Source: an uncultured Opitutaceae bacterium (GTDB lineage: Bacteria > Verrucomicrobiota > Verrucomicrobiia > Opitutales > Opitutaceae). Taken from it: a stretch of DNA of 39,681 nt. The stretch lies in assembly GCA_964634535.1 (NCBI GenBank), contig CAZWMF010000001.1:1-39681 (forward strand). The letters run 5' to 3'. Shown here piece after piece: positions 3,736 through 33,910 of the stretch (positions are counted from its first letter, which is position 1; every line of letters starts with the position of its first letter). Below the pieces are notes generated by a model, which did no database searches, was not told the DNA's origin, and saw only the letters and a program-made list of their open reading frames with translations. Both the position numbers and the translations under genes were made by a program.

Positions 3736-4566
3736 ATGAAAAAACTACGCGTACGCACGGTGATCCTCTCGGACGTCCACCTCGGAACCCGCGAAAGCAA
3801 GGTTCGCGAGGTGAACCATTTCCTGCGGCACGTCCATTTCGCCAAATTGATTCTCAACGGGGATATCATCGACGGATGGCAGCTGCGCCGCACGGGCCAA
3901 TGGACCAAGGCCCATACGCGCTTCATCCGGATCGTCCTGAAGCGCCTGGAAAAGCGGGACTGCGAGGTCGTTTACTTGCGCGGCAACCACGACGACATCC
4001 TGTCCCGCTTCCTGCCCCTCGAATTCGAGCGCCTCTCGATCGTGGAGGACCATGTCCACGAAGGCCCGCTGGGCCGCTATCTCGTGCTGCACGGCGACGT
4101 CTTCGACACGGTGACCAAGAACTTCCTGTTCCTGTCGCATCTGGGCGACGCCGGGTACATCATGTTGCTCGAGATCAATCGCCTGTACAACAAGTGGCGG
4201 GCCTGGCGGGGTTTGGAATACTGGTCGCTCAGCAAGGCGATCAAAGCCAAGGTCAAGGAGGCCGTGAACCACATTTCCAAGTTTGAGAATCATGTGGCCC
4301 AACTGGCCAAGGAACGGGGCTGCGTCGGCGTGCTCTGCGGACACATCCACACGCCGGCCGACAAGATGATCGATGGAATCCACTACCTGAACTCGGGCGA
4401 CTGGGTCGAAACGCTCAGCGCCGTGGTGGAGCACTGGGACGGCCGCTACGAGCTGATCGATTTCGTCACGTTTGCCCGGACCTATCCGATGGAATCGGAA
4501 GAGGCCGAGGAAGCTCCGGAGCCCGAAGTCGAGCCGGTCTTGGCCGCGCCAGCGCCGCCGCAATAG
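3736..4566 (+). CDS. LpxH-family metallophosphoesterase (UDP-2,3-diacylglucosamine diphosphatase-like)
   Basis: Calcineurin-like motifs appear in order: SDVHLG, NGDIIDGW, LRGNHDD, LHGD, GHIHTP. This pattern is shared by COG2908/LpxH-type enzymes. The ATG at 3736 is internal to the 2560 ORF. The C-terminus is an acidic/Pro-rich tail. Confidence 0.7.
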   Translation: MKKLRVRTVILSDVHLGTRESKVREVNHFLRHVHFAKLILNGDIIDGWQLRRTGQWTKAHTRFIRIVLKRLEKRDCEVVYLRGNHDDILSRFLPLEFERLSIVEDHVHEGPLGRYLVLHGDVFDTVTKNFLFLSHLGDAGYIMLLEINRLYNKWRAWRGLEYWSLSKAIKAKVKEAVNHISKFENHVAQLAKERGCVGVLCGHIHTPADKMIDGIHYLNSGDWVETLSAVVEHWDGRYELIDFVTFARTYPMESEEAEEAPEPEVEPVLAAPAPPQ

Positions 4567-5848
4567 CCGCGCGGGTTTTTTCCACGGCGCCGCGATTGTC
4601 CTCGCGCCAGGCCAAGGCCGCCGCGCCCATGGCGGCGCCGACCGCCGGAGTGCGCAAAAGAGCGACGATTTCGGCGGACGCGGCGGCCGGCGACACGACG
4701 CGGGCGGCACCGCGGTCCAGCAGATCGCGGGCGATCGCGCGAAAATTGCCCATGCCCGGGCCAAACAGGATCGGCTTGCCGAGCGCGGCGGCCTCGACCG
4801 GCGTCTGCCCTTCGGTGTGAGGCGGCAGGCTCTTGCCGACAAACACCACGTCGGCCAGCTGCAGAAACTGCCGCAATTCCCCGGTCGTGTCGCCCACGGC
4901 GACGTCGACCGGTGCCGGCGCCGGCCCCCGAGAGCGCAGGTGCCAGCGCCAAGGGCTTGCCCCCAATTCGGCCGCCACGGCGTCGCGGCGTTCAGCGTGC
5001 CGGGGCACGAGCAAGAGCGACGCGTTCAGCCCCGCCGCTCGCGCGGCGGCCAAGGCGGACAGGAGAACCGTTTCCTCGCCCGGCCACGTGGACGCCCCCA
5101 CGATGACGAGACCATCCGCCAGCCCGAGTTCCCTCCGCAGCTGCGCCCGCGCAGATTCGCTCAACGTTGGAAATGCCACGTCGAGCTTGAGGTTGCCCGA
5201 GACGCTGAGCCGCGCGGCCGGCACCCCGAGCGCCCGAAACCGGGCCTCGTCCTGCCGGGACCCGGCCAGGATCTCCGTCAATCCGCCCAGCGCCAGCCGG
5301 GCGGCCGGCGGAAAACGCCGCATCCGGCCAAAGCTCCGGTCCGATATCCGAGCATTGATGCTCAACACGGGCACGCCCCGGCGGCGGGCCTGATGCGCAT
5401 GCTCCGGCCAGCGTTCGCCTTCGGTGAGCACGACCAAATCCGGCTCGATCCGCCGCCAGGCCCGCGCCGAAAACGGCCACCAGTCGATGGGGAAATACCC
5501 CAAACCGACCAACCCCTCAGCGTACCGCTCCCGCGCCAGGGCGTACCCCGTGCTCGTGGTCGTCGTCAAATAAACCTCCCACCCCTCCTCCTTTAACGCC
5601 TTCAAGAGCGGCCCGACCGCAAGCAACTCGCCCACGCTAACCGCCTGAAGCCATATCCGCGGAGCCCGCCGCCCCGGCAACCGGGGATGCGCCCCCAACC
5701 GCTGGGAGAAGTTTTCCCCATACCCCCCCCGCTTCCACATCCGCCGCACATACCTGGGCAATAGAATCAGGAAGGCCGGAACAAACAGAACGCGATACAG
5801 CCAAAGCACCCCTGATTCTTCCCCACTCCTCCTCCATTTCCAATCCAT
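4466..5848 (-). CDS. waaA: 3-deoxy-D-manno-octulosonic acid (Kdo) transferase
   Basis: The N-terminal membrane anchor is followed by IWLQAVSVGE, the hallmark HxxSxGE-type motif region of KdtA/WaaA. The rest shows GT-B architecture (VFVGKSL...GQTPVEAAALGKPILFGP). Confidence 0.85.
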   Translation of the reverse strand: MDWKWRRSGEESGVLWLYRVLFVPAFLILLPRYVRRMWKRGGYGENFSQRLGAHPRLPGRRAPRIWLQAVSVGELLAVGPLLKALKEEGWEVYLTTTTSTGYALARERYAEGLVGLGYFPIDWWPFSARAWRRIEPDLVVLTEGERWPEHAHQARRRGVPVLSINARISDRSFGRMRRFPPAARLALGGLTEILAGSRQDEARFRALGVPAARLSVSGNLKLDVAFPTLSESARAQLRRELGLADGLVIVGASTWPGEETVLLSALAAARAAGLNASLLLVPRHAERRDAVAAELGASPWRWHLRSRGPAPAPVDVAVGDTTGELRQFLQLADVVFVGKSLPPHTEGQTPVEAAALGKPILFGPGMGNFRAIARDLLDRGAARVVSPAAASAEIVALLRTPAVGAAMGAAALAWREDNRGAVEKTRAAIAAALARPRPARLRAPELPRPLPIPSDRSGQT

Positions 5849-5913
5849 TTTCCACTCCCCACCCTCCCCAGTCGCCCCTAGGGGCGTCGCACTTACCCCC
5901 CTTGAGTAGGGTC

Positions 5914-6088
5914 CCGTCGCCGTGCGAATTAGTCTGGCCCTACCGGGGCGTTGCGTCGCTCATCAACCCTCTCCTGGCTGGACTGCGACACCAGCTCCAC
6001 TGCGCGGATCACTGCGGGCCGGTTTGAGGGTTGTCTGGGCCTTGCGACGCTTGCCCCGGTAGGGCCGGACTAATTCGCACGGCGACGG
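5914..6088 (+). repeat. 175-nt palindromic/structured intergenic element, copy A (candidate structured RNA)
   Basis: 5914-5949 pairs with 6053-6088 over 36 consecutive positions (35 Watson-Crick plus one G-U, t5935-g6067). Inner helices are 5953-5959/6044-6050, 5964-5971/6026-6033, 5973-5974/6021-6022 and 5976-5979/6017-6020. The paralogue lies at 15865-16039. Confidence 0.7.
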
Positions 6089-6144
6089 CGCCCGGCGTCA
6101 TCAGCTGGGTTGAAAACAACCAAACTTTGCGCCATCAGACCCCC

Positions 6145-8967
6145 GTGCCCACGTTCCGCCGCCTCTGCGCCCTCGCCCTGCTCAGTCTCGGTCTGCCGCA
6201 TCTGCGCGCGGCCCTGCCCTTTCCCCAGGACGGCAGCGACCTGCGGCCGGATCCGGCCGCCCACTTTGGCATTCTCCCCAATGGACTGCGCTATCTGATC
6301 TATCCCAACCACGAACCGCGCGACCGCGCCTCCCTGCGGCTGCTCGTCCTGAGCGGTTCCCTGGAGGAGCGCGACGACCAACGCGGCCTCGCGCACTTTC
6401 TCGAGCACATGGCGTTCAATGGCAGCGCCCACTACCCCCCCGGCACGCTGGTCGAATACTTCCAGCGCCTGGGCCTGAGTTTTGGCGGAGACACCAACGC
6501 CTACACCGACTTCGACCACACCGCCTACCAAATCGAATTGCCGCACACCAAACCCGACATGATCGCCGAAGGCCTGCGGGTCTTCGCCGACATGGCGGGC
6601 ACGCTCCTGCTCCGGCCGGACATGATCGCGAAGGAACGGCCGATCATCCTGGCCGAGAAGCGGGACCGCGATTCGATCGACTACCGCGAATTCGTGGCCT
6701 CGTTCGCGTTTGAATTGCCGGACGCACGCCTACCCCGGCGCCTGCCGATCGGCTCGGCGCCCGTGATCGAAGGGGCCACGCGTCCGCTCTTCACCGATCT
6801 CTATAATACGTGGTACCGACCCGAGCGCATGGTCGCGATCGTCGTGGGCGACATCGACCCGGCCGTCGTGCAGCCGCTGCTGGTCGCCGCGTTTGGCGGA
6901 CTGACCGACCGGGCTCCCGCCCGGCCCAATCCGGACCTGGGGACCGTGACCGTGGCGCTCGGCCTGCGCGCCGGCTACCATGCCGAGCCCGATGCGCCCT
7001 CGACCATCGTGAGCATCGACGTCATGACTCCGTATCGGCCGCCGGTGGACAGCGCCCGGGTGCGCCGGGCCCACCTGCACCGCGATCTGGCGGTGGCGAT
7101 GCTCAATCGGCGGCTAGAGATTCTCGCAAAAAAGGAGGGAGCGCCCTTCATCCGGGCCGAGGCCGCCGTCGACGAGAGTTATCGCTCGGTGCGCGACGCC
7201 GGCATCAATGTGACCTGCAAGGCCGAACTGTGGCGCGAAGCGCTGGCGGTCGGCGAACAGCAATTGCGCAGCGCCCTGCAGTACGGCTTCACCGAGGGAG
7301 AGCTGCGGATCGCCGCGGCCAACCTGCGCAACGATTTGGAGCAGGCGGCGGCCGCCGCGCCGACCCGGCGCTCGCCGGACCTGGCGGATGCGATGGTCCA
7401 CCAGTTCGTCGATGGCGTCGTCCTGACGAGTCCGGCCGACGACCTGGCCCTCCTGGGGCCCGCGCTCGACCAGGTTACGCCCAACGCGTGCGCCGACGCG
7501 CTGCGTCTGGCCTTCAGCGCGCCCGGTCGTTACCTCTATGTCACCGGCAATGTGCAGATTCCCGGGGACGCCGCGGCCGAAATCGAACGCGTCTACGCCG
7601 CCGCCCATGCCGTCGCCATCGCTCCCCCGGCGCCGGAGCGCCGCGAAGCGTTCGCCTACACCCAGTTCGGGCCGCCGGGCCGGGTGCTATCCGCGCGGCG
7701 GGTGGACGACCTCGACCTGACCGAACTCACCTTCGCCAATGGTGTTCGGGCCAATCTCAAACGCACCGCGTTCGAAGCCGATCGCATCCGGGTGCGCGTG
7801 CGGGTCGGCGGCGGCCTGCTGACCCTGCGCGCGGACCAACCGGCCCTGAGTCTCTTCACCGATGCCACATTCGCGGCCGGCGGTCTCGGCCGGCATAGCG
7901 CCGACGACCTGCAGCGACTCCTCGCGGGCCACACCGTCAGCCTCGACCAGATCTTCCAGGTGGGTAGCGATGCCTTTGAATTTGCCGGAGTCACCAATTC
8001 GGCCGACCTCCTCCTCCAACTCCAGGTGCTCGCAGCCTACCTGACCGACCCCGGATACCGGCCGGAGGCGATGCGCGTGGCCAGCAAGGAAATCGACGAG
8101 TATTACAAGCAGCTCGAGCACACCGTCGAAGGCCCGCTCGAAGCGACCGTTCCCGGGCAGCTGGCCGCCGGCGACCCGCGCTTCGGGCTGCCGGCGCTCG
8201 CCGTGGCCCATGCCCGCAACCTCGACGAAGAACGGGCCTGGCTGGCACCGCAGTGGGCCCGGGGACCGATCGAAATCGGCCTGGTCGGCGACCTCGACCC
8301 GGCCGTGGCGACGGACGCCCTGGCCCGAACTTTCGGAGCTTTGCCCGCCCGAGCGGCGAAGCCGACTTATGCCGCGGAACGGATCGTCCATTTTCCCAAG
8401 CCCTTTACCGAACACCTGACGGTGGTGACCGATATCCCCAAGACGGCGGTCGCCCTCTATTGGCCGACCACCGACGCCTTCGACGTCCATCGGGCGCGGC
8501 GGCTCATGCTGCTCAAGGAAATTCTCGAGGATCGCCTGCGGGTGAAGATCCGCGAACAGCTGGGCGGAGCCTACAGCCCCGAGGCGGAGAGCGAACCGAG
8601 CGACACCTTCACGGGCTACGGCTACCTGGTGGCCGAAGTCATCGTCGACCCGAAGCGCGCGGAGGAAATACGCCAGTCGGTGCTCGCGCTGGCCGCCGAT
8701 CTGGCCGCCCACGGCGCCACCCCCGACGAGCTCAAGCGGGCCAAGCAGCCCGTTCTAACCGCATTGCGGGAATCGGCCCGCACCAACCCCTACTGGTTGA
8801 CTGCCGTCCTCGGCAGCTGCCAGGAGTTTCCCCAACGGCTCGACTGGGCCCGAAGCCGCTACTCCGACGTCGAATCGGTGACCCCGGCCGACATCGCCGC
8901 CCTGGCCAGCCAGTACCTGGGTTCGGAACGCGCCTTTCAGGTCGTGGTGGCGCCGAGGGGGAAGTAG
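6145..8967 (+). CDS. M16 (pitrilysin/insulinase) family zinc peptidase, two-lobed, secreted
   Basis: The HFLEH zinc-binding motif (inverted HxxEH) lies in ...GLAHFLEHMAFNGS.... The length is consistent with two M16 units. A GTG at 6145 gives MPTFRRLCALALLSLGLPHLRAA, a plausible signal peptide. A TTG at 6127 is an alternative start. The 6031 start would lie inside repeat A. Confidence 0.85.
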   Translation: MPTFRRLCALALLSLGLPHLRAALPFPQDGSDLRPDPAAHFGILPNGLRYLIYPNHEPRDRASLRLLVLSGSLEERDDQRGLAHFLEHMAFNGSAHYPPGTLVEYFQRLGLSFGGDTNAYTDFDHTAYQIELPHTKPDMIAEGLRVFADMAGTLLLRPDMIAKERPIILAEKRDRDSIDYREFVASFAFELPDARLPRRLPIGSAPVIEGATRPLFTDLYNTWYRPERMVAIVVGDIDPAVVQPLLVAAFGGLTDRAPARPNPDLGTVTVALGLRAGYHAEPDAPSTIVSIDVMTPYRPPVDSARVRRAHLHRDLAVAMLNRRLEILAKKEGAPFIRAEAAVDESYRSVRDAGINVTCKAELWREALAVGEQQLRSALQYGFTEGELRIAAANLRNDLEQAAAAAPTRRSPDLADAMVHQFVDGVVLTSPADDLALLGPALDQVTPNACADALRLAFSAPGRYLYVTGNVQIPGDAAAEIERVYAAAHAVAIAPPAPERREAFAYTQFGPPGRVLSARRVDDLDLTELTFANGVRANLKRTAFEADRIRVRVRVGGGLLTLRADQPALSLFTDATFAAGGLGRHSADDLQRLLAGHTVSLDQIFQVGSDAFEFAGVTNSADLLLQLQVLAAYLTDPGYRPEAMRVASKEIDEYYKQLEHTVEGPLEATVPGQLAAGDPRFGLPALAVAHARNLDEERAWLAPQWARGPIEIGLVGDLDPAVATDALARTFGALPARAAKPTYAAERIVHFPKPFTEHLTVVTDIPKTAVALYWPTTDAFDVHRARRLMLLKEILEDRLRVKIREQLGGAYSPEAESEPSDTFTGYGYLVAEVIVDPKRAEEIRQSVLALAADLAAHGATPDELKRAKQPVLTALRESARTNPYWLTAVLGSCQEFPQRLDWARSRYSDVESVTPADIAALASQYLGSERAFQVVVAPRGK

Positions 8968-8980
8968 GTCCGCCTCCGCC

Positions 8981-9074
8981 TTCGCCTTCGGCTACGGCGG
9001 GACAAGGTTCGCCTTCGGCTACGGCGGGACAAGGTTCCGCCTCCTCCTTCGCCTTCGGCTACGGCGGGAGTAGG
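8981..9074. repeat. 27-bp tandem repeat (ttcgccttcggctacggcgggacaagg), with 2 identical adjacent copies, a 13-nt spacer, then a third copy with 2 mismatches
   Basis: 8981-9007 and 9008-9034 are identical. 9048-9074 differs at 2 positions. The 13-mers at 8968-8980 (gtccgcctccgcc) and 9035-9047 (ttccgcctcctcc) are also related. A degenerate fourth unit follows, to about 9098. Confidence 0.85.
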
Positions 9075-9105
9075 TTCGCTTTGGCGGCGCGACAAAGCCC
9101 GATTT

Positions 9106-15300: not shown

Positions 15301-15837
15301 ATGCGGTCTAGCGCCGGTCGACCGATCGAGATAGGCTGCCGCCATCCGCGTCTGCGCCTGAAGCCCGCCGAGGTGGCCGCCGCTCTGCACCGCCTCGACG
15401 CGGAGCGCCATCGCTGGGAAACCGCCGCGTCCGTCCTGGGCCGGGCCGGCGGCCGCGAAACCTTGACGATCGCCTTCGTGACCGACGCCGAACTCGCGCG
15501 CCTGCACGCCCAGTTCCTGGACGATCCGACGCCGACCGACGTGATCACCTTCCCCGCGGAGCCCGGCTTCGGCGCCGCCGGCGAAATCTGCGTGTCGGCC
15601 GACGCCGCCGCCCGCCAGCCCGGCCGCGCCTTCTCCCTCGAACTCACCCTTTACGTCGTCCATGGCTGGCTCCACCTCGCCGGCCACGACGATCTGAATC
15701 CGGCCGCCAAACGCCGCATGCGCCGCGCCGAGCGCTCCGCCCTGGCCCACCTCCGCGCCGCCCGCGCCCTCCCGCACTTTTCCCTCGCGCCCGCCCAAAT
15801 CAAACGCCCGCACAAGAAGCGATCCCGACTGAACTGA
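15301..15837 (+). CDS. ybeY: rRNA maturation endoribonuclease YbeY
   Basis: The zinc motif is HGWLHLAGHDD (H-x3-H-x5-H). The preceding ITFPAEP...GEICVS segment is typical of YbeY. Confidence 0.85.
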   Translation: MRSSAGRPIEIGCRHPRLRLKPAEVAAALHRLDAERHRWETAASVLGRAGGRETLTIAFVTDAELARLHAQFLDDPTPTDVITFPAEPGFGAAGEICVSADAAARQPGRAFSLELTLYVVHGWLHLAGHDDLNPAAKRRMRRAERSALAHLRAARALPHFSLAPAQIKRPHKKRSRLN

Positions 15838-15864
15838 TCCCTCGACCCTTCTCGATTTGCGGGA

Positions 15865-16039
15865 GTGCCAAGTTTTGAAATAAACCCACCCTCCCGGGGC
15901 GTTAGCGCAGCTCATCAACTCCCTCTGGGACCGTCTGCGTGGCACGCTCCACTGCGGTGATCACTCGGTCCGGTTCGGGGGTTGTCTGGGCCTGGCGAAG
16001 CGTGCCCCGGGAGGGTGGGATTATTTCAAAACTTGGCAC
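15865..16039 (+). repeat. 175-nt palindromic/structured intergenic element, copy B (candidate structured RNA)
   Basis: 15865-15900 pairs with 16004-16039 over 36 positions, with 35 Watson-Crick pairs and one A-A mismatch (15884/16020). Inner helices are 15916-15923/15977-15984 and 15928-15933/15966-15971. The core aligns with copy A and the total length is the same. Confidence 0.7.
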
Positions 16040-16113
16040 GGCTGAATTGCGATGGATCGAGAGAGTTTGTTTGCCCGCACCGCGCGGGCCGATAGCCTAC
16101 TCGCGCCCATGCT

Positions 16114-16830
16114 ATGCCGCTGACCGCCCTCCCCGACCCAGCGCACGATCCCGTGCACGATCCGATCCCGCCGCCGCGCTCGCGGCTCGTCACCGTGCGG
16201 GACGCCTTCATCTCCGGGGCCCTCCTGCTCGCGCCCCTCGTGGTCACCGTCTGGGCCTTTTCCTGGGTGCTCTCCGCGATCGGCGGCAGCTTTCGCCCGG
16301 TGTTCTTCTTTTTCCTGCCCAAGAACCACCCGCTGCTGGACCTGGCGCTCGATCTGGTCTCGACGCTCATCGTCCTCGTCCTCGTCACCGTCCTCGGCTA
16401 CGTATCCCGCGACGTGTTCGGCCGTTTCTTTGTCCGCATCGCCGAGCGTTTCGTCCTCAGCATCCCCGGCGTCGGCGCCGTGTACATCTCGGTCAAGCAG
16501 ATCGTCGACACCTTCGGCAATCAAAACCGCAACAAGTTCAGCAAGGTCGTCCTGGTCGAGTTCCCGCGGAAAGGCTGCTGGGCCATGGGCTTTCTCACAA
16601 ATCGCGCGCAAGCCGAGCCCCAGATCAAGATCGGCCAGGAAGTCTGGACCGTGTTCATCCCCACGACGCCCAATCCGACCGGCGGCTACGTGCTCTTTCT
16701 GCCGCCCAGCGACATCATCGAACTGGAAATGAGCATCGGCGAGGGCATGAAGATGATCATTTCCGGGGGGGCCGTCCTGCCGCCGGGCAACCGTTCCCCG
16801 GCGCCCGCCGGGTCCGCGACCCAGGAGTAG
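16114..16830 (+). CDS. DUF502-family membrane protein
   Basis: It has two N-terminal transmembrane helices. Conserved DUF502 segments are present: IPGVGAVYISVKQIVDTF, FSKVVLVEFPRKGCWAMGF, PTTPNPTGGYVLFLP and EGMKMIISGG. Confidence 0.8.
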   Translation: MPLTALPDPAHDPVHDPIPPPRSRLVTVRDAFISGALLLAPLVVTVWAFSWVLSAIGGSFRPVFFFFLPKNHPLLDLALDLVSTLIVLVLVTVLGYVSRDVFGRFFVRIAERFVLSIPGVGAVYISVKQIVDTFGNQNRNKFSKVVLVEFPRKGCWAMGFLTNRAQAEPQIKIGQEVWTVFIPTTPNPTGGYVLFLPPSDIIELEMSIGEGMKMIISGGAVLPPGNRSPAPAGSATQE

Positions 16831-19981: not shown

Positions 19982-20025
19982 GAAACAAACCGACCTCGGC
20001 GCCGTCTCATCCCTCTTACCTGGTT

Positions 20026-23000
20026 ATGTCTTTCTGGAACCCCCTCCGCTCCATCGTCTTTCTAATGCTTGCGATCGTGGCCATATCCGCGGCCATGCCC
20101 GTGCGGGCCGCCGTCGCAGCCGGCGCGGCGCCGGCCCGGCGCGAATTGACCCGTCAGGAACTGGCCCAGGGCTACCGCAACGGCGTCGTCCTGGCCAAGC
20201 CGCGGGCCGACCACCGGGCCAGCGTGGACGCCGACGAGGCGCGCGAGGGCACCGCCGCGATCCGCACCTTCCCGCGCATGGCCGACTTGCGCATCCTGCC
20301 CACGCAGTCCGGGGAAGACGCCCGCCATGCCGTGGCCCGGCTCAGCGCGACCGGACGCTACGAATTCGTCGAATTGGATCGGGTGATCCACAAGGACCAG
20401 ACGGTGACGCCGAACGACCCCGACTTCGGACAGCAATGGGGCCTCAACAACACCGGCGCCAACTCCCCGGACGGCAGTCCCGGAATCGCCGGAGCGGACA
20501 TCCACGCCCCGGCGGCCTGGGCGGTCTCGACCAACGCCGCGTCCGTAATCGTCGCCGAAATCGACACCGGCGTGCGGCTGACCCATGCCGACCTCGTCGC
20601 CAATCTGTGGATCAATCCGAGCGCCAACCGCGACGGCTACACCGGCGACGTCAACGGCATCGACGCTTCCGACCCGCAGGCGGTCACCGGCGACCCGTCC
20701 GACAGCGACGGCCACGGCACCCATGTCGCCGGCATCATTGGCGCGGTCGGCAACAACGGGCAGGACACTTCCGGCGTGTGCTGGACGGCCAAGATCATGG
20801 CCCTCAAATTCATCGGCTCGAGCGGCAGCGGCTCCACCTCGGGCGAAGTGATCTGCATCGATTTTGCGATCGCCCATGGCGCCAGTCTCATCAACGCGAG
20901 CTTCGGCTCGAGCCAGGCGAGCCAGTCGGAGGAAACGGCGATCCAGACGGCCGGCAATGCCGGCATCATCTTTGTGGCCGCCGCCGGCAACAATTCCGAG
21001 GACAACGGACTTACCACGAGCTACCCATGCAATTATCCCCTGGACAACATCGTGGCGGTGGCCGCTTCGGACAATCGGGACGATCTGGTCTACTTCTCCG
21101 ACTCGGGCTCGGGCAACGTCGAACTGGCGGCTCCGGGCAACGAGATTCTCTCGCTCTACAATACGAGCGACACGGCGACCGCCGTTCTCTCCGGAACGTC
21201 GATGGCCACGCCGATGGTCACCGGCTCGCTGGCCCTGCTCCGGGCCCAGTCGCCGAGCACCAGCTACCGCTACGTCATCAACCGGCTGCTGCGCCACGTC
21301 GATGCGCGCACCAATTTCCTCGGACGGGTGCAAACCGGCGGCCGACTTAATCTGGCGGCGGCCTTGACCTCGGCCCTCACCGACACGGCGCCGTTCAACG
21401 ACGATTTCGCCGCGCGGGGCCATCTGGCTGGGCCGACCGTCGCGGTGCGCTCGAACAACACCGGCGCCAGCCGCGAAGCGGGCGAACCCTTGATTGCGGG
21501 CAACGCCGGCGGGGCCTCGCTATGGTGGGATTGGACCGCGCCCTATACCGGGACCGTGACCCTGACGAGCGCGGGCTCGGCCTACGCCACCTTGCTGGGG
21601 GTCTACACCGGCACGGCGCTCGGCTCGCTGACGACCGTCCAAACCGCCACGTCCGGATCGCTGACCTTTTCCGCCCAGGCGGGGACAACCTACGCCATCG
21701 CCGTCGACGGACAGAATGGCGCCCATGGGCTAACCCTGCTGAATCTGAGTTTCGCCAACGACAACTTTAGCACGCCGATGACCTTGGCGGGGGTCAGCCC
21801 GCAAGTGACCGCAAGCACGGCCAATGCCACGCGGCAGGCGGGCGAACCGTTGATCGACGGCCTGGCCGGCGGCCATTCGGTCTGGTTCACCTGGACGGCG
21901 CCGCAGAGCGCGCAATACCAGGTCTCCGCGACCTCGCCAGACTTTGATCCGCTGGTCGCCGTCTACACGGGAAACAACCTGTCGGCGCTCAGCGCCCTCG
22001 CCAGCGGACATGGATCGGCCATCAACGCCAGCGCCTCCACCCCCGTGAGCATCGGGTCCGGAACGTTTGGCGCCGTGGCGGGCGTCACCTATCTGATCAC
22101 CGTGGACGGCACCACCGATGCGAGCACGCAATTGTCCGCCGGCCAGTTCACGTTATCCCTGGCCGATTCCCAGTGGCAGGGACTCACCACCGATTCGGTC
22201 ACCGGTTCGCCCGCCATCGGGGCCGACGGCACCGTCTACGCGGTCTCGACCGACGGCATTCTCTACGCCTTCACCGCTACCGGGGCGACCCGCTGGACGT
22301 ACAACGCGCAAAACGTCCTCGGCGGGACGGCCACCATCGACACGAGTTCGCCCGCTGTCGGAACCGACGGGACCCTCTACACGTCCGCCATCGGCTCGTC
22401 CAACGGTGCGGTTGTGGCCGTGACCGCCCAAGGCGCTCTCAAATGGAGTTACGCACCCCCGGCGGGGGACTACCCGACCTGCTCGCCGGCGTTGGCCTAC
22501 GATGGCACGGTGATCGTAAAGGACAGTAGCGGCCAACTCGACGCCCTCGACCCGGCGACGGGCACGCTCAAGTGGCAGAGCGCCGTCCCCGGATCCTCCT
22601 ACGCCGCGCCGTCGATCGGCCCCGACGGCACGATCTACATCGGCACCGACGACGGGGCCGGCGGCGGCCAGCTGTATGCCATCAGTTCCACCGGAACGCT
22701 GAAATGGACGGCGCCGGCGGACGGGCCGATCTATTCGACGGCGGCAATCGACGCCCGGGGCCACATTTATTTTGGAAGCCTCACCGGGACATTCTTCGCG
22801 GTCGATACGAGCGGCCATCGGCTCTGGTCCCAAACCGAAGGCAATAGCATCTCCTCCTCGCCGGCGATCGGTTCCGACGGCACGATCTATTTCGGGTGCT
22901 ACGACCACCAACTCTATGCGCTCGACCCGACCACCGGCGCGACGCGGTGGACCTACCGCCTGGCCGCCGAGGTTCGCGCCAGTTCGCCCGCCATCGCTGC

Positions 23001-24411
23001 GGGCGTCGCCGGCCTCGACGTCGTTTATATCGGCGACTACGACGGCAACCTCTATGCGGTCAATGCCGACGGCACGCTGAATCGCACGTTCGCCACGGGC
23101 ATGATCGTCCGCTCCTGTCCGGCGATCGCCAACAACACGCTCTATTTCGGGAGCGAGGACCACAAGGTGTACGCCTTTGCCCTCGGCACGCCCGCCGCGA
23201 GTTCAACCTGGCCGATGTATATGCAGAATCCGCAGCGCCGCGGCGCGGAGGCCGCCACCGCTCCGGCCATCACGATCCAGCCGCAGAGCCAAAGCGTCGC
23301 GGCGGGCAATACCGTCACATTGAGCGCGACGGCAACGGGCGGTGCCCTGACCTATCAATGGTTCTTCGCCGGAACGCCGATCGCCGGGGCGACCGGCTCC
23401 ACCCTGGTTCTGTCCCAGGTCGGCACCAGCCAGAGCTCGCTCTATGGCACTTACACCGTATCCGTCTCCAACATTCTGGGCACGGCCGTTTCGACGGCCG
23501 CCGCCCTGACCGTCCAGCCAAACGCCCACCTGATCAATCTGTCCTCGCGTTCCTACGTCGGCACCGGCGCCCAAGTGCTGGTGGCCGGATTCGTCGTCGC
23601 CGGCGCCGGCACGAAGCAGGTGCTGATTCGGGGCGATGGGCCGGCTCTCTCAACCTTCAATGTCGCCGGCGTCCTCGCGCAGCCGCTCCTGTCGCTCTTC
23701 GACAACACCTCCACGGTGATCGCGACCAATGCGGGCTGGAGCAACGCCGCGGTACTGGGCTCATCGAGCGTCGCCGCCACGATTGCGCCGGCCACGACCA
23801 ACGTGTTCAACCAGGTCTACGCGTTCACCCTGCCTACCGGCTCGGCCGACAGCGCGATGCTCGCAGGCCTGCCGCCGGCCGCCTACACCGCCGAAATCAG
23901 CGGAGTCGGCAATACGACCGGGGTCGCCCTGGCCGAACTCTACGACGCCGACAGCGGCACGCCCACCGCCCACCTCGTCAACCTTTCGGCCCGCGCCTTC
24001 GTCAACACCGGCTCGGGCGTCCTGGTCGCCGGCTTTGTCGTCAATGGCACCGGTTCGGAAACCGTGCTCATCCGCGGGATCGGCCCGGCTCTGGGGCTGG
24101 CGCCCTTCAACCTGCCGGGCGCCCTGGCCCTGCCGCAGCTCACGCTTTTCGACAGCACGGGAGCGGTCATCGCCACCAATGCCGGCTGGAGCACCGCGCC
24201 AGCGGGCGGAGCGTCTGCGGTCCCCGCCGGCATTCAGCCGGCCACGGCGCCACTCATGAGCGCCCTCTATGCCTTTTCCCTGCCGGCCAATTCCGCCGAC
24301 TGCGCGATGGTCATAACGCTGCCGGCCGGAGCCTACACCGCTCAGGTGAGCGGCGAGGGCGGCACGACCGGCGTAGGGTTGGTCGAGGTTTACGACGTTC
24401 CCGGCAATTGA
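20026..24411 (+). CDS. secreted multidomain S8 (subtilisin-family) serine peptidase, 1461 aa
   Basis: A signal/anchor sequence (MSFWNPLRSIVFLMLAIVAISAAMPVRAA) is followed by a propeptide-like region. The catalytic triad contexts are AEIDTGV (Asp), DGHGTHVAGI (His) and SGTSMATPMVTG (Ser). Two modules of about 110 aa follow (NDxF...GEP...VYTG...VDG). Next come PQQ/BamB-like beta-propeller repeats (DGT.Y... repeated many times) and an Ig-like domain (ITIQPQSQSVAAGNTVTLSATATG...YQWF). Two tandem 148-aa C-terminal modules complete the protein. Confidence 0.85.
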   Translation: MSFWNPLRSIVFLMLAIVAISAAMPVRAAVAAGAAPARRELTRQELAQGYRNGVVLAKPRADHRASVDADEAREGTAAIRTFPRMADLRILPTQSGEDARHAVARLSATGRYEFVELDRVIHKDQTVTPNDPDFGQQWGLNNTGANSPDGSPGIAGADIHAPAAWAVSTNAASVIVAEIDTGVRLTHADLVANLWINPSANRDGYTGDVNGIDASDPQAVTGDPSDSDGHGTHVAGIIGAVGNNGQDTSGVCWTAKIMALKFIGSSGSGSTSGEVICIDFAIAHGASLINASFGSSQASQSEETAIQTAGNAGIIFVAAAGNNSEDNGLTTSYPCNYPLDNIVAVAASDNRDDLVYFSDSGSGNVELAAPGNEILSLYNTSDTATAVLSGTSMATPMVTGSLALLRAQSPSTSYRYVINRLLRHVDARTNFLGRVQTGGRLNLAAALTSALTDTAPFNDDFAARGHLAGPTVAVRSNNTGASREAGEPLIAGNAGGASLWWDWTAPYTGTVTLTSAGSAYATLLGVYTGTALGSLTTVQTATSGSLTFSAQAGTTYAIAVDGQNGAHGLTLLNLSFANDNFSTPMTLAGVSPQVTASTANATRQAGEPLIDGLAGGHSVWFTWTAPQSAQYQVSATSPDFDPLVAVYTGNNLSALSALASGHGSAINASASTPVSIGSGTFGAVAGVTYLITVDGTTDASTQLSAGQFTLSLADSQWQGLTTDSVTGSPAIGADGTVYAVSTDGILYAFTATGATRWTYNAQNVLGGTATIDTSSPAVGTDGTLYTSAIGSSNGAVVAVTAQGALKWSYAPPAGDYPTCSPALAYDGTVIVKDSSGQLDALDPATGTLKWQSAVPGSSYAAPSIGPDGTIYIGTDDGAGGGQLYAISSTGTLKWTAPADGPIYSTAAIDARGHIYFGSLTGTFFAVDTSGHRLWSQTEGNSISSSPAIGSDGTIYFGCYDHQLYALDPTTGATRWTYRLAAEVRASSPAIAAGVAGLDVVYIGDYDGNLYAVNADGTLNRTFATGMIVRSCPAIANNTLYFGSEDHKVYAFALGTPAASSTWPMYMQNPQRRGAEAATAPAITIQPQSQSVAAGNTVTLSATATGGALTYQWFFAGTPIAGATGSTLVLSQVGTSQSSLYGTYTVSVSNILGTAVSTAAALTVQPNAHLINLSSRSYVGTGAQVLVAGFVVAGAGTKQVLIRGDGPALSTFNVAGVLAQPLLSLFDNTSTVIATNAGWSNAAVLGSSSVAATIAPATTNVFNQVYAFTLPTGSADSAMLAGLPPAAYTAEISGVGNTTGVALAELYDADSGTPTAHLVNLSARAFVNTGSGVLVAGFVVNGTGSETVLIRGIGPALGLAPFNLPGALALPQLTLFDSTGAVIATNAGWSTAPAGGASAVPAGIQPATAPLMSALYAFSLPANSADCAMVITLPAGAYTAQVSGEGGTTGVGLVEVYDVPGN

Positions 24412-24660
24412 CCCGGGCAAATCTGGCGCAATCTTCGCTCCTGGGTCAGGTGCTCTCAGCGGAACCCTCCGGGGCGGCGCTTCGCCAGGACCCAAAAAGC
24501 CGACACGCCGCGCCTCATCGAGCGGGGCGCCCGAGTCGGTTTGGGAGGCTCCGCTAGGCTTAGGGCAAGCTGACCCACGACCCCATCTTCGCCGGTTTTG
24601 CGCGGGACGCGGAAACCGCGCTTTACTCCCTCAAGGAAGGACCTGAAAGTAACCAAACTG

Positions 24661-27513
24661 ATGCCGACCCCAATCAGAATCCTGCGTGCGTTGGTTCTCC
24701 TCGGAATGGGCGCTTTCGCGCTGGCAGCTGGTTCCGCGTGGGCGGCGATCGAACGCCAGGCCGACGGCGTCGTCATCCCGTTGACCGACGGAACCCTGCT
24801 CAAGCTCGAGGTGCGTTCCCCCACCGTGATCCGCGTCCTGCGGGCCAAGGACCGGACCTTCTTTGCCCATGCCAGCCTCGTCGTGACCGAGCCACGGGAA
24901 GCGGTCCCCCCCTGGGACCTCACGCAAGACGCCGGCCAGGCCGAGCTCGCCACCGCCGCCCTCCGCGTGCACATCGATCTGGCCACGGGAACGATCGCAT
25001 TCCGGGATCGCCAAGGCGTTCTGATCCTGGCCGAACAGCGGGCCGGCACCGAACTCCAACCGATCCAAGTCCAGGGCCTGGCCACTTATGAGGTTGCCCA
25101 ACGCTGGGAGCCAAACCCGGGCGAGGCTCTGTACGGCCTGGGCCAGCACCAATTCGGCTTCGTCAACCTCAAGGGCCACAGCCTCGACCTGTGGCAGCAC
25201 AACACGGAGGTGGCCCTGCCCTTGCTCGTCTCGAGCCGGGGATACGGACTGCTCTGGGACAATCCGGCCTATACCCGCTTTGGGGACCGGCGCGCGCCCC
25301 GGGCGATCCCCGCCGACCAGCTCACCGACGCGGACGGTCGCCCGGGCGGGCTAACCGTGTCGTATTTTGCCGGCGAGGATTTCACGCGCCCAATCGTCCG
25401 CCGCGACACCGCGTCGGTCGCGATCCGCCTGGCGTCCCGGGAGGCCCTGAATCGGCGCCCCATACCGCCGGATTTTCCGGCGGGGGCCCGGTCGGTCCGC
25501 TGGGAGGGAACCGTCCAGGCCACCGATGCCGGCGAGTACACCTTCGATGCCCGGTTCATCTACGGCTTCCGCCTATGGCTCGACGACCGGCTAGCGATGG
25601 ACCACTGGCGCCAGGACTGGCTGCCGGGTGACGAACAGGCCCAAATCCACCTGGAAGCGGGCCAGCGGGTTCGCCTGCGGGCCGAATGGTTCAAGAGCGG
25701 CCGGGGCGGCGACGTGGCTCTGAAATGGCTGACGCCTTCGCCCGAGGCGCCGAGCACGTCCCTGTGGTCCCAGGCCGGCGGCGGGCTCGACTATTATTTC
25801 ATCGCCGGACCGCGCATCGACCAGGTGATCGCCGGTTATCGCCGGCTCACGGGCACGGCGCCCCTGATGCCGATCTGGGCCTTTGGCCTGTGGCAATCGC
25901 GGCAGCGCTACAAGACCCAGGCGGAAATCCTGGATACGCTCGCCGAATTCCGTCGGCGCGCCATCCCGATCGACGACATCGTCCTCGACTGGTTCTATTG
26001 GCCGGAGAACGCCTGGGGCTCCCATCAGTTTGATCCGGCCCGCTTCCCGGATCCGGCCGGCATGATCCGGGCGGTGCACGACGCGTATCATGCCCACTTC
26101 ATGATTTCGGTGTGGCCAAAGTTCTATACGGGCACCGCCAATTTTGCGGAGCTGCAGGCCAAGGGTCTGCTCTACGCGCCCAATCTGCGCGAGGGCATCC
26201 GCGACTGGGTGGGCTATCCGGACACCTTCTACGATGCGTTCAATCCCGAGGGCCGACGGGTCTTCTGGAGCCAGATCGATCGGGCGCTATTCCGCTTGGG
26301 AGTCGACGCCTGGTGGCTGGACGCCTCCGAGCCCGACCTGCTGCCCCAGCCCTCGCTCGCGGGCACGCTCACCCACATGAATCCGACGGCGCTCGGCCCC
26401 GCTTCCCAGGTGCTCAACGCCTATCCGCTCATGAACAGCACGGCGGTGGCCGAGGGCCAGCGGACGGCGGCGCCCGACCAGCGGGTATTCATTCTCACCC
26501 GCTCCGCCTTCGGCGGCCAGCAGCGCAACGCGGCGGCGACCTGGTCGGGCGACACGTCCTCCACCTGGACAGCCTTGCGCAAACAGGTTCCGGCCGCGCT
26601 GGGCTTCTCGATTTCCGGCATTCCCTATTGGACGATGGACATCGGCGGATTTGCGGTGCCCCCGCGATTCTCCGATCCCCACGCCAGCGCCGCCACCGTC
26701 GCGGAATGGCGCGAACTCAACACGCGCTGGTTCGAATTCGGGACCTTCGTTCCGCTCCTGCGCGTCCACGGCGAAATGCCCTTCCGCGAGATGTGGCAGT
26801 TCGGCGGCGAAACCGATCCGGCCTATCGGGCCCAGTTGAAGTTCGATCGGCTGCGCTACCGCTTGCTGCCCTATATCTATTCGCTGGCGGGCGCGGTGAC
26901 GCGCGAGGATGGCACCATCCTGCGGCCCCTGGTCATGGACTTTCCCGACGATCCCCGCGTCCTCGACATCGCCGACCAATACCTCTTCGGGCCCGCCTTG
27001 CTCGTGAGTCCGGTGACGGCGTTTCGGGAGCGCCGCCGGCCAGTGTATCTACCGGATGGGACCGCGTGGTACGATTTTTGGACCGGGACCGTCCAGGCGG
27101 GCGGGCGGTCCATCGAGGCCGCCGCGCCCTTCGACGAAATTCCCATCCACGTCCGGGCCGGAGCCATCGTGCCCTTTGGCCCGCCCTTGCAATACACGCT
27201 GGAAAAGCCGGCCGACCCGCTCACCGTCTACGTGTACGCCGGCGCCGACGGCGCCTTCACGGTGTACGAGGACGACGGCTTGACCAATGGCTACACCCGC
27301 GGAGCGTACAGCCTCATTCCCGTGACCTGGAACGACGCCCGGCACGTGCTGACCCTCGGCGCCCGGACCGGTTCGTTTGCCGGCATGCGGGCGGAGCGAA
27401 CCATGCGCATCGTCCGGGTGGCGCCCGATCATCCATCCGGCTATCCCTTCGACGGCCCGGCGGACCGCGAGGTGCGCTACACCGGCCAAGCCGTCGCGGT
27501 CACGTTACCTTAA
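24661..27513 (+). CDS. GH31 glycoside hydrolase with inserted PA14 domain (alpha-xylosidase-like)
   Basis: Signal peptide MPTPIRILRALVLLGMGAFALAAGSAWA. A PA14-like insert is present (GGLTVSYFAGEDF...VRWEGTVQATDAGEYTF...GFRLWLDD). The GH31 catalytic region includes VDAWWLDASEPD (nucleophile Asp context), YWTMDIGGF and RVHG. The architecture resembles PA14-bearing alpha-xylosidases. Confidence 0.8.
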   Translation: MPTPIRILRALVLLGMGAFALAAGSAWAAIERQADGVVIPLTDGTLLKLEVRSPTVIRVLRAKDRTFFAHASLVVTEPREAVPPWDLTQDAGQAELATAALRVHIDLATGTIAFRDRQGVLILAEQRAGTELQPIQVQGLATYEVAQRWEPNPGEALYGLGQHQFGFVNLKGHSLDLWQHNTEVALPLLVSSRGYGLLWDNPAYTRFGDRRAPRAIPADQLTDADGRPGGLTVSYFAGEDFTRPIVRRDTASVAIRLASREALNRRPIPPDFPAGARSVRWEGTVQATDAGEYTFDARFIYGFRLWLDDRLAMDHWRQDWLPGDEQAQIHLEAGQRVRLRAEWFKSGRGGDVALKWLTPSPEAPSTSLWSQAGGGLDYYFIAGPRIDQVIAGYRRLTGTAPLMPIWAFGLWQSRQRYKTQAEILDTLAEFRRRAIPIDDIVLDWFYWPENAWGSHQFDPARFPDPAGMIRAVHDAYHAHFMISVWPKFYTGTANFAELQAKGLLYAPNLREGIRDWVGYPDTFYDAFNPEGRRVFWSQIDRALFRLGVDAWWLDASEPDLLPQPSLAGTLTHMNPTALGPASQVLNAYPLMNSTAVAEGQRTAAPDQRVFILTRSAFGGQQRNAAATWSGDTSSTWTALRKQVPAALGFSISGIPYWTMDIGGFAVPPRFSDPHASAATVAEWRELNTRWFEFGTFVPLLRVHGEMPFREMWQFGGETDPAYRAQLKFDRLRYRLLPYIYSLAGAVTREDGTILRPLVMDFPDDPRVLDIADQYLFGPALLVSPVTAFRERRRPVYLPDGTAWYDFWTGTVQAGGRSIEAAAPFDEIPIHVRAGAIVPFGPPLQYTLEKPADPLTVYVYAGADGAFTVYEDDGLTNGYTRGAYSLIPVTWNDARHVLTLGARTGSFAGMRAERTMRIVRVAPDHPSGYPFDGPADREVRYTGQAVAVTLP

Positions 27514-28619
27514 CTTGGCGCGATTCGCGTCTGCGCCGGCGGCGGGCCCACCGAGGCGCGAATGACCAAATCGACTGCAAATACCGTCGGCCGCGCGGGC
27601 GCCGGCCGCGCGTCGGCCGAATCGCCCATGCGGTCCAAGAGGAGTTCGACCGCCCGAGATCCCATGGCGCGCAATGGTTGGCGCACCGCGGCCAATTGCG
27701 GCACCGTCGTGCGAGCGGCTACCGTGTCGTCGAACCCCGCCACGGACATATCCTCGGGCGCCTTTAGCCCGACTTCGGCCATGGCTTCCAGGCAGCCCAT
27801 GGCGATGGCGTCGTTGGCGCAGAACACCGCCTGCGGCAAGGGCTGACCGACATGCTCCCGCAGCCAGCGGCGAAAGGCGCCGTATCCGCCCGGGGCGCTG
27901 AAGGCGGACTCGCACACGAGGTCGGGGTCGAAACGGATCCGGCCGGCCGTCAATGCCCGACGGTAACCGCGCAGGCGCCGCAGCGCACCCAGGGCGCCCC
28001 GCTCGCCCCCCAGATGCAGAATCCGCCGGTGGCCGAGCTCGATCAAATGGCGCACCATCTGGCAGGCGCCCGATTCCTCGTCGCTCTCCAAGTTGATGAC
28101 GCCGGGCAGAGGGTGATTGGCGTGGAGCGCCACAAAGGGCGTGTGCGGCGGCAGGGCCCGGCCGGCGGCCGTGGGCATCCGGGGACCGACCAGGATCATC
28201 CCGTCGATGCGGCCGTCGCAAAAACCGCCGAGGCGCGCCGCATCCTCCGCCCAGTTAGCCAGAGAGAACACCGTGGTGTTCTGCCCGTGGGCCGTCGCCG
28301 CCGCGACCACCCCGGCGAACACCTCCAGAAAGTAGGCGTCGATCTCGCCGTCGCCGAAGACCGCGGCGACCCCGATCGTGTTCATCCGCCGATTGGCCAA
28401 CGCGCGGGCGGCGGCGTTGGGCCGATAGCGCAGCCGAGCGGCCGCGGCGAAGATCCGCTCCCGCGTGCCCGCGGAAATGCGCGAGGAGGTGCGGGCCGCG
28501 TTGAGCACCGCCGAAACCGCCATCGCCGAAACGCCGGCGGCCCGGCCGACATCGGCCAGGGTGGCCGCCCGCTTCGAAGAATGCTGCCGAATATGGACCA
28601 TCGACCGGCCTACTCTCAC
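27510..28619 (-). CDS. LacI-family transcriptional regulator
   Basis: The N-terminal HTH is ATLADVGRAAGVSAMAVSAVLN...SAGTRERIFAAAARLRYRPNAAARAL. A periplasmic-binding-protein-like sugar-binding core follows. An alternative start (MVHIRQ) lies at 28601. Confidence 0.9.
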   Translation of the reverse strand: MRVGRSMVHIRQHSSKRAATLADVGRAAGVSAMAVSAVLNAARTSSRISAGTRERIFAAAARLRYRPNAAARALANRRMNTIGVAAVFGDGEIDAYFLEVFAGVVAAATAHGQNTTVFSLANWAEDAARLGGFCDGRIDGMILVGPRMPTAAGRALPPHTPFVALHANHPLPGVINLESDEESGACQMVRHLIELGHRRILHLGGERGALGALRRLRGYRRALTAGRIRFDPDLVCESAFSAPGGYGAFRRWLREHVGQPLPQAVFCANDAIAMGCLEAMAEVGLKAPEDMSVAGFDDTVAARTTVPQLAAVRQPLRAMGSRAVELLLDRMGDSADARPAPARPTVFAVDLVIRASVGPPPAQTRIAPS

Positions 28620-28700
28620 GAAATTGCCCGGCCTTGTCCCGGCTTTTTTGGTCGATTTATCCTCTGGATGGGCGTTTTCTGAGCGTTCTACCCCACCCCT

Positions 28701-30947: not shown

Positions 30948-30956
30948 ATTTTTACC

Positions 30957-33827: not shown

Positions 33828-33835
33828 CCCGGATC

Positions 33836-33866
33836 GGGCGCCGCAGGTCCCGACCGGGCGGCGCCC
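33836..33866 (+). terminator. GC-rich hairpin downstream of the GH2 gene (possible intrinsic terminator)
   Basis: gggcgccgc (33836-33844) pairs perfectly with gcggcgccc (33858-33866). It is followed by the pyrimidine/T-rich stretch aaattcccttcccttttcgtcccggattttt. Confidence 0.35.
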
Positions 33867-33910
33867 AAATTCCCTTCCCTTTTCGTCCCGGATTTTTAGC
33901 ATTAGCGCGC

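Follow-up and report, generated by a model that had tools for sequence, protein, structure and literature searches.

A 175-nt hairpin sequence in two intergenic regions of an Opitutaceae bacterium as a candidate non-autonomous repeat element with a conserved core and locus-specific arms

The question raised by the intergenic region between ybeY and a DUF502 membrane protein gene of an uncultured Opitutaceae bacterium is what kind of entity might be represented by a 175-nt sequence that folds back on itself almost perfectly from end to end, and of which a second copy lies elsewhere on the same contig, between kdtA (for a Kdo-transferase-like enzyme) and the gene of an M16 peptidase. The window analysed here is the entire contig of 39,681 nt, part of a metagenome-assembled genome; we call the copy preceding the DUF502 gene B and that preceding the M16 gene A. 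The initial annotation of this DNA proposed that selection acts on a folded + strand transcript, be it a cis-regulatory leader, a processed small RNA (sRNA) precursor or an RNA-protein scaffold. Comparison with related Opitutaceae leads us to favour, with a probability of about one half, another reading, namely that A and B are lineage-restricted non-autonomous hairpin elements of Opitutaceae, resembling REPINs and miniature inverted-repeat transposable elements (MITEs). The members of the family share an architecture in which a core of ~100 nt, with conserved motifs and covarying helices, is enclosed by a near-perfect stem of 36-44 bp, the outer part of which is specific to each locus.

The geometry of the two copies is identical. 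A recount agrees that both are exactly 175 nt long and closed by a 36-bp terminal stem. In B the 36-nt arms are complementary at 35 of 36 positions (97%), the sole mismatch being A15884/A16020, and enclose a spacer of 103 nt, while in A the arms occupy 5914-5949 and 6053-6088, again with 103 nt between them. The window has no other long near-perfect inverted repeat, and the core motifs which A and B have in common occur at these two window positions only, two of them, CCGGTTYG and TCTGGGC, being found also in copies C and D of related bacteria, described below. On gapped alignment the mean column identity of A and B is 88% over a region of 152 columns; the 38 identities reported earlier for an ungapped comparison of 54 central nucleotides could not be reproduced, the best ungapped offset yielding 34/54. 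Both sequences fold far more stably than shuffled versions of themselves, with z scores of -14.3 (A) and -11.5 (B). Within A, the word ACTGCG is present three times as a direct repeat in the apical stretch 5982-6018 (GACTGCGAC, CACTGCGCG and CACTGCGGG), the counterparts in B being TCTGCG, ACTGCG and ACTCGG.

How the stem varies between the copies is central to its interpretation. A position-by-position recount of the outer helix returned the same 20 identical positions and the same 14 positions changed on both strands with Watson-Crick pairing kept, the remaining two being a T-G pair in A that is C-G in B, and a T-A pair in A that is the A-A mismatch in B. The identities are unevenly distributed: in the inner arms 11 of 13 positions agree, in the outer arms only 9 of 23, where 28% is expected from base composition. 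With the outer 23 bp at chance identity, the outer stems of A and B are two unrelated self-complementary sequences, and to read the 14 double changes as independent compensatory events, as had been done, would overstate the case for covariation. Moreover, an RNA helix held in mutation-selection balance does not usually run for 36-44 bp with at most one imperfection. When replication switches template from one arm of an inverted repeat to the other, the arms are known to be made perfect, both sides changing in one event, and arms can also be lengthened, spacers inverted and hairpins maintained (PMC8794818, PMC8604942, PMC13100816). Arm homogenisation of this kind, acting at the level of DNA, gives the same picture as the outer-stem changes.

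The core behaves differently. In contig L041 of a relative, a covariance model of A and B (R1) matched a full-length third copy, C (3096-3246, minus strand; 49.3 bits, E = 7e-11 and 2e-13), which is present as an identical stretch in L042 and is located between fabF and a HIT-family gene; a second model (R2) was built from A, B and C. The perfect 44-bp stem of C is unrelated in sequence to the stems of A and B, while its core has CUCUnnGG, CCGGUUYG and UCUGGGC in common with theirs and differs in the apical part. When A, B and C are placed on one structure, 97.4% of the cells pair and 24 of the 51 pairs are changed on both sides, values which none of 500 shuffles reached, although the counts are taken from a model-fitted alignment and fitting to the structure favours pairing. 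Sliding the 3' partners by one to three columns in this three-copy comparison lowers pairing to 32-47%. A MAFFT alignment of A to D was structurally inconsistent and hence was not used for covariation.

Taken singly, the internal helices are persuasive. An internal helix of 8-9 bp is rewritten from CAACCCUC/GAGGGUUG in A to CAACUCCC/GGGGGUUG in B and UCCGGUCUC/GAGACCGGA in C, a second from GCGUCGC/GCGACGC (A) to UGCCGCC/GGCGGCA (C), and a third from GGACCG/CGGUCC (B) to GGCCGCCAA/UUGGCGGCC (C). The inner changes listed in the initial annotation are all present: within the 8-bp helix, U:A of A corresponds to C:G of B at columns 46/103, and C:G of A to U-G of B at columns 44/105, while in the next helix c5978:g6018 has a15930:t15969 as its counterpart. 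The four wobble pairs given there as the complete set likewise exist, but there are further G-U pairs on the + strand, for example at columns 25/128 and 36/114 in both copies, the last of which is retained as U-G in C. Because the core helices covary among A, B and C and this wobble is conserved, a single-stranded fold of the core is under selection. To this extent the earlier claim of selection on a folded + strand holds; its further step, to a transcript and an RNA function, does not follow.

A second line of evidence comes from the orthologous sites. The gap between ybeY and the DUF502 gene is 276 nt in the window and 16, 24, 38, 43, 48, 54 and 75 nt in seven relatives (DUF502 proteins 65-82% identical), and that between kdtA and the M16 gene is 296 nt in the window and 105-181 nt in six loci from five species. 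Neither nhmmer nor the covariance models detected an element at these sites of the relatives. Since A and B are absent from the same sites of all relatives compared, they are lineage-specific insertions. Copy B itself is carried by an independent 2.5-kb JGI contig, L028, which is 100% identical to the window across the element. The copies number two in the 39.7 kb of the window and one per ~17-21 kb in two relatives, and a covariance-model scan of ~110 kb from other relatives returned none. The outer arms had no match elsewhere in the window that would indicate an origin from the local flank, and the intergenic DNA of the relatives is too diverged to show such an origin; a 9-mer, CGCCGTGCG, common to the 5' arm of A and to the empty site of relative L236 is suggestive at best.

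The site between fabF and the HIT-family gene, empty in the window and in L233 and L234, is occupied in three species. Copy D (L174, 6185-6397) belongs to a species other than that of C; its core is ~70% identical to that of C, its orientation is opposite and its decayed arms now measure 22 nt at 86%. Copy E, in contigs L033 and L037 of a third species, is oriented as C and is cut by contig ends. C, D and E all begin 3-4 nt from a conserved word, GTCAAAGG. The arms of C and E are identical at only 17 of 44 positions, whereas the cores are 85% identical and the flanks conserved. In the third species, L033 and L032 agree at 99.7% over 12.3 kb and show ~8 substitutions in the DNA around the element, yet ~30 of 113 positions differ between E and the allele in L031 and L032, E', which lacks the inverted repeat and has an A+T-rich island after it. 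Copies of the element are thus gained, lost, inverted and replaced in intergenic DNA within the time-scale of species and even of strains. Such gain and loss, inversion and divergence of alleles is the behaviour of mobile or turning-over DNA, unlike that of a conserved leader, and template switching fits the inversion of copy D as well as arms that are perfect within a copy and unrelated between copies. L033 and L037 are independent metagenome contigs of one species which break at different points inside E, and this suggests either an assembly problem posed by the repeat or palindrome, or alleles co-existing in the population.

The island that adjoins the broken E' is specific to the strain (L031 5062-6300, L032 1-560) and holds two small open reading frames (ORFs) of 43 and 210 aa, for which there was no Pfam or PADLOC match and only a weak PHROG match of unknown function; L033 ends before the position of the island and carries the different allele of the element. 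The juxtaposition of island and broken element brings to mind sites for structure-recognised recombination, such as integron attC, serving as landing pads for mobile DNA. attC sites are recognised as a folded single strand, structure counting for more than sequence, and measure 57-141 nt; a conserved structure with variable stem sequence and strand-specific folding, as found here, would agree with this. But neither the R'' (RYYYAAC) nor the R' (GTTRRRY) core site could be read at the ends of A, B or C, the window contains neither an integrase gene nor a cassette array, and the island ORFs match nothing informative. In attC, moreover, the boxes at the ends are conserved and the centre is variable, the opposite of the present arrangement, and we consider this explanation very improbable.

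A search of ~320 kb of Opitutaceae DNA for inverted repeats, which allowed no arm shorter than 22 nt, no more than 3 mismatches and spacers up to 260 nt, returned copies A to D and one more element, F, apart from a short hairpin in L031 (22 nt, around a spacer of 22 nt); in A, B, C and F the spacer measures 103-107 nt. Element F (L236, 5733-5899, and also L237 and L238) begins at the stop codon, TAG, with which the M16 gene ends in the relative that carries copy C. It has A+T-rich arms of 33-40 nt around a spacer of ~105 nt, a geometry like that of the other copies. Its core is a different one and almost fully rod-like; its inner stem has the word CCGGGGC in common with A and B. The + strand of F is more stable than the - strand by 13 kcal/mol. 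Two single-nucleotide polymorphisms within F distinguish L236 from L237, and L237 and L238 end inside it.

Which strand of the element matters can be approached through the folding energies. The minimum free energy (MFE) of the + strand of B is -115.2 against -103.3 for the - strand, and for A the corresponding values are -138.3 and -129.6; the sense strand of A, of B and of C is the more stable with RNA as well as with DNA parameters. When only the cores are folded, the difference, sense minus antisense, amounts to -3.0 (A), -12.5 (B) and -6.9 (C) kcal/mol. The GC skew of the + strand is negative in almost every 1-kb bin of the window (cumulative -2.7), though most genes lie on this strand, and the background of the energy difference is shifted in consequence (+3.2 +/- 5.9 kcal/mol for 103-nt windows of this contig), for which any argument from strand asymmetry must allow. 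Against this background the asymmetry of B is clearly unusual, at 2.7 standard deviations, while that of A taken alone is not. Among single mismatches inside helices a strand-neutral count gives 3 G-U, 0 A-C and 1 other. The asymmetry is suggestive of one functional strand, which RNA and single-stranded DNA fit alike.

It is here that a structured + strand RNA with a function for the host, whether as cis-acting mRNA element, sRNA precursor or RNA-protein scaffold, finds its best arguments, for to the covarying core helices with their conserved U-G pair, the more stable sense strand and the excess of G-U over A-C mismatches may be added that the unpaired CCGGTTYG, TCTGGGC and CUCUnnGG are the best-conserved parts. 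On this explanation the stem would only have to be double-stranded, for example as a site for RNase III or for a protein binding double-stranded RNA (dsRNA), and the loops would bind a factor. The near-perfection of the long stem, discussed above, is atypical of helices held by selection alone, and the empty orthologous sites, the inversion and decay of D and the loss of the partner arm in E' all speak against it. Nor is there a gathering-score match to Rfam (release 15) anywhere in the window, or a match even at E <= 10 in 15750-16150. The placing of the copies with respect to transcription also bears on it (Table 1).

Table 1. Positions in the window of the two copies, of the parts of copy B, and of the neighbouring genes and putative promoter elements
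Feature	Position	Strand	Remarks
Copy B, whole 175-nt hairpin element	15865..16039	+	inverted repeat; MFE -115.2 kcal/mol; covariance models R1/R2 174/159 bits
B 5' arm	15865..15900	+	outer 23 nt (15865-15887) locus-specific, A+T-richer
B 5' arm, inner 13 nt	15888-15900	+	CCCTCCCGGGGC plus one base; common to copy A
B core, 103 nt	15901..16003	+	branched or rod-like fold
B core helix GCTCA/TGGGC	15910-15914 with 15987-15991	+	
B core helix CAACTCCC/GGGGGTTG	15916-15923 with 15977-15984	+	
B core helix GGACCG/CGGTCC	15928-15933 with 15966-15971	+	
B core, conserved unpaired motif CCGGTTCG	15970-15977	+	
B core, conserved unpaired motif TCTGGGC	15985-15991	+	
B 3' arm	16004..16039	+	complements 15865-15900 save A16020
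Copy A, paralogous 175-nt element	5914..6088	+	inverted repeat, extends imperfectly to 5909-6093
ybeY, upstream of B	15301..15837	+	Pfam PF02130, E = 1e-20; stop codon 27 nt before B
DUF502 membrane protein gene, downstream of B	16114..16830	+	Pfam PF04367, E = 2e-32
Putative DUF502 promoter	16071..16098	+	TTGCCC (16071-16076), 16 nt, TAGCCT (16093-16098)
Kdo-transferase-like glycosyltransferase gene	4466..5848	-	Pfam PF04413, E = 2.5e-51; divergent from M16
M16 peptidase gene, downstream of A	6145..8967	+	Pfam PF00675 and PF05193
Putative -35 box TTGAAA of M16 gene	6110..6115	+	21 nt downstream of copy A

The putative promoter of the DUF502 gene begins 31 nt past the end of B; it was not called by a consensus promoter scan, and its counterpart in relative L029 reads TTGCCC-N16-TAGAAT before the same gene. 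The M16 gene of relatives is preceded, at an equal distance from the start codon, by TTGAAA-N16-TACAAC or TACACT, and C, D and E adjoin a conserved TTGACW-N17-TTNNTG that precedes the HIT gene. Judged by this conservation, the promoters of the DUF502, M16 and HIT genes would lie downstream of the elements, so that A and B are probably outside the 5' untranslated regions of the genes that follow and probably are not leaders. A further point against a cis-regulatory leader, the first of the possibilities put forward initially, is that the corresponding sites of relatives are empty and the genes downstream (M16 peptidase, DUF502, fabF or HIT) belong to no constant family, whereas a steady link to one gene family or pathway marks such leaders. 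The remark that both copies are oriented as the gene downstream loses its force as well, since co-orientation is automatic for elements between divergent genes and the argument comes down to B.

If the putative promoters hold, none of the copies stands between the gene that it precedes and the promoter of that gene, all being upstream of the promoter, and A, C, D and E lie between divergent promoters, where no transcript from a neighbour is to be expected. Read-through transcription is likely for B alone, which follows ybeY at 27 nt, and this is a point in favour of an RNA. Consensus scans for promoters and terminators gave little information: no promoter-like site was found upstream of A or B, and neither copy has a terminator-like hairpin with a T-run at its 3' end or further on, the matches to a terminator pattern in the region of B being confined to the arms of B and to ybeY upstream. 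On balance we regard a host-functional RNA as rather unlikely.

The same position lends some interest to a regulatory device acting as DNA, either an inverton, flipped by recombination between the long inverted repeats, or a cruciform insulator responsive to the negative supercoiling that arises between divergent promoters. Perfect inverted repeats of 36-44 bp around ~103-113 nt, the opposite orientations found at one site in two sister species (C and E as against D), the location of four of five loci between divergent genes and the proximity of C, D and E, within 3-4 nt, to the TTGACW motif of the HIT gene are all of the kind expected, and invertons too have inverted repeats flanking a short segment upstream of genes. 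However, the orientation is the same in two independent assemblies of B (window and L028) and in two of C (L041 and L042), no population sample showed a mixture of orientations, the window is without a recombinase gene, and the inverted repeats are not common to the loci, so that one invertase could recognise at most the inner 12 bp. The consensus scan detected no promoter-like hexamers inside the core, and a strand asymmetry of folding is unexpected for a purely double-stranded device. Spacer inversion can, in addition, be produced by template switching (PMC8604942). A DNA device of this sort is accordingly improbable.

The remaining genes of the window offer no obvious agent of mobility: ten other large ORFs are housekeeping or glycoside-hydrolase genes, and there is no gene for a transposase, REP-associated tyrosine transposase (RAYT), recombinase, invertase, integrase or reverse transcriptase in the 39.7 kb. 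The block at ~20000-34000, between a DEAD_2 helicase gene and pyrB, comprises genes for an S8 peptidase/beta-propeller protein (very large), GH31, a LacI-type regulator, a BNR-repeat protein and GH2; in some relatives the helicase gene is followed by the S8 gene only, in others directly by pyrR/pyrB.

Two other repeat-like sequences of the window may be mentioned. At 24464-24497 on the - strand, in the intergenic region after the large S8-peptidase/beta-propeller gene, 32 nt resemble the 3' part of B (TGGG-CCTGGCGAAGCG-GCCCCGG-AGGGT). As a third copy this stretch was rejected, since it scores 38 against a background of up to 32 and is missed by nhmmer and by both covariance models; it could be a relic or due to chance. 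Directly after the stop codon of the M16 gene, at 8969-9082, there are three overlapping or tandem copies of a G+C-rich repeat of ~34-47 nt, GCCTTCGCCTTCGGCTACGGCGGGACAAGGTTCG, with a further copy, 76% identical, at 30483-30516. With its CTAC (= GTAG) this repeat looks like a cluster of the REP/BIME type as in Opitutus terrae (PMC3733652).

Several searches of wider sequence collections were unproductive. The pattern GCTCCACTGCGNNGATCACT had 26 matches in public genome contigs, from unrelated phyla and none with a second core motif, and GCTCCACTGCG-N15-35-GGTTGTCTGGG had a single match in public metagenome contigs, inside a coding region; the apical motif is specific to A and B, being missing in C, D and E, and these public scans therefore gave chance matches only. 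Three scans of viral contigs, one of them with CCGGTTYGRGN{5,7}TCTGGGC, likewise gave chance matches, none of which was confirmed by nhmmer or a covariance model. Searches by blastn returned nothing for copy B against plasmids and, as a test for a spacer-like origin, nothing significant for the arms against phages.

A six-frame translation of A and B compared with 5.8 billion proteins also returned nothing, and this bears on the possibility that the conserved block is part of a gene for a small protein. Its + strand frame is indeed open (...LINPLLAGLRHQLHCADH... in A, ...LINSLWDRLRGTLHCGDH... in B) with several residues common to both copies, but no start codon or ribosome-binding site is conserved in position, the frame is shifted beyond the block by two 1-nt indels, the stops fall at different places in A and B, and on direct reading just one substitution is synonymous. 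The block is entirely different in C, by which a coding function is effectively refuted.

Returning to the non-autonomous hairpin element that we favour, how might it propagate and diverge? One possibility is that the core together with the inner 12-13 bp of the stem constitutes the recognition target of a trans-acting enzyme encoded elsewhere. Recognition would be on one strand, as single-stranded DNA, in the manner of the HUH transposases of the IS200/IS605 type or of RAYTs, enzymes that leave neither a consensus of terminal inverted repeats nor a target-site duplication. The ends of the elements agree with this in that direct reading shows no conserved terminal sequence (the first letters are CCGTC in A alone, GTGCC in B and GCGATC in C) and none of A, B and C has a direct repeat next to its ends. 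A near-repeat, GATTTGCG/GAATTGCG, around B stands 5-6 nt from its ends and has no counterpart at A, and the 5' flanks (GGGTC, CGGGA, GGCCA and GGGGC) are G-rich with no common fixed word.

On this mechanism the outer stem would need only to pair. Intramolecular template switching at replication, by which a change in one arm would be copied to the other in a single event, could keep the arms perfect within a copy while allowing rapid divergence between copies, and might also extend the arms into flanking DNA and invert the spacer. Copies would later decay, as D and E' may have done, or be replaced, as E and E' suggest. A transcript reading through the element, as might occur at B after ybeY, would carry a long dsRNA hairpin, and any effect on expression would be a by-product. 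That the copies lie just upstream of promoter-like motifs and mostly between divergent genes is in any case a regular feature of the family.

Several considerations weigh against such an element. Five or six loci are known, three of which represent one site; the window has no transposase, RAYT or recombinase gene and none has been linked to the family. The core is better kept than the arms in every copy, which for dead copies of a selfish element would require a model of propagation from a master copy and otherwise points to a host function. If C, D and E are orthologues, the perfect 44-bp stem of C has survived the divergence of species, which would imply either strong selection or very efficient homogenisation of the arms. 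The equal length of A and B with unrelated arms fits one 175-nt ancestor better than independent extension. Finally, the ends of the element pair together, without the separate left and right hairpins typical of IS200/IS605.

The constancy of arm length (36 and 36 nt in one genome, 44 and 44 at one site) invites a more radical thought, that the family represents a new kind of element or RNA in which a conserved core of ~100 nt is furnished with 'programmable' arms of 36-44 bp that are rewritten at each locus. Rewriting could take place either because propagation copies the flank of the target in inverted form, in effect an inverted target duplication, or through a dedicated process. What functions just upstream of promoters would then be the long duplex itself, in the form of a DNA cruciform or of dsRNA. 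Unrelated arms of constant length, the lack of terminal and direct repeats and the sharp differences between alleles are all compatible with this scheme, which we nonetheless consider quite unlikely.

How does the hairpin element that we favour compare with described families? Its closest parallel in several respects is with REPINs, in which the spacer needs only the right length and the capacity to form a hairpin, compensatory changes being common (PMC3116915), and Opitutus terrae, a relative, is rich in REPs (PMC3733652). As with REPINs, the element is non-autonomous, intergenic and without target-site duplication; the whole unit forms one long hairpin as single-stranded DNA or RNA, part of which is constrained by length and pairing alone and shows compensatory changes between copies (PMC3116915). 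In REPINs, however, the ends, consisting of REPs with their GTAG/CGTC tag, are conserved and the middle is variable, whereas here the reverse holds: no tagged REPs are common to all copies, the outer arms being at chance identity. The present element is also about twice as long and has no linked RAYT gene, and by membership it is not a REPIN.

Similar half-likenesses are found with other families. ERIC/IRU and Correia (CREE) elements, which are co-transcribed into long hairpins cleavable by RNases, are imperfect palindromes of 100-160 nt found in Enterobacteria and Neisseria, intergenic, near promoters and patchily distributed at orthologous sites as is the case here. They are conserved along the whole element, including the terminal repeats, in contrast to the unrelated outer arms described above, and Correia elements make a TA duplication, none of which was seen at the copies of the present family. 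The conserved terminal inverted repeats and direct duplications of classical MITEs are both lacking, and so are the subterminal hairpins and fixed tetra- or pentanucleotide of elements derived from IS200/IS605 (PATEs). Hairpins arising by template switching (quasipalindrome correction) resemble the element in their perfect arms, paired clusters of change, arm growth and spacer inversion, but template switching is a mutational process and leaves unexplained a covarying core of ~100 nt at unrelated loci. The element is thus without an Rfam family and without a close counterpart among the described repeat families compared, and the combination of a conserved centre, perfect but locus-specific arms and a place just upstream of promoters is an unusual architecture.

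To our knowledge, almost no mobile or non-coding elements have been described in Verrucomicrobiota, and confirmation of the family in complete genomes would add to this phylum a structured, strand-specific hairpin element whose architecture reverses that of REPINs and attC sites, the centre being conserved and the ends free. It would also provide a natural case in which selection on a folded strand, acting on the core, can be separated from the homogenisation of arms, acting on the outer stem, a distinction that matters wherever covariation is used to call RNA structure. And since the copies are placed directly upstream of promoters, effects of the element on transcription or supercoiling would be open to direct test.

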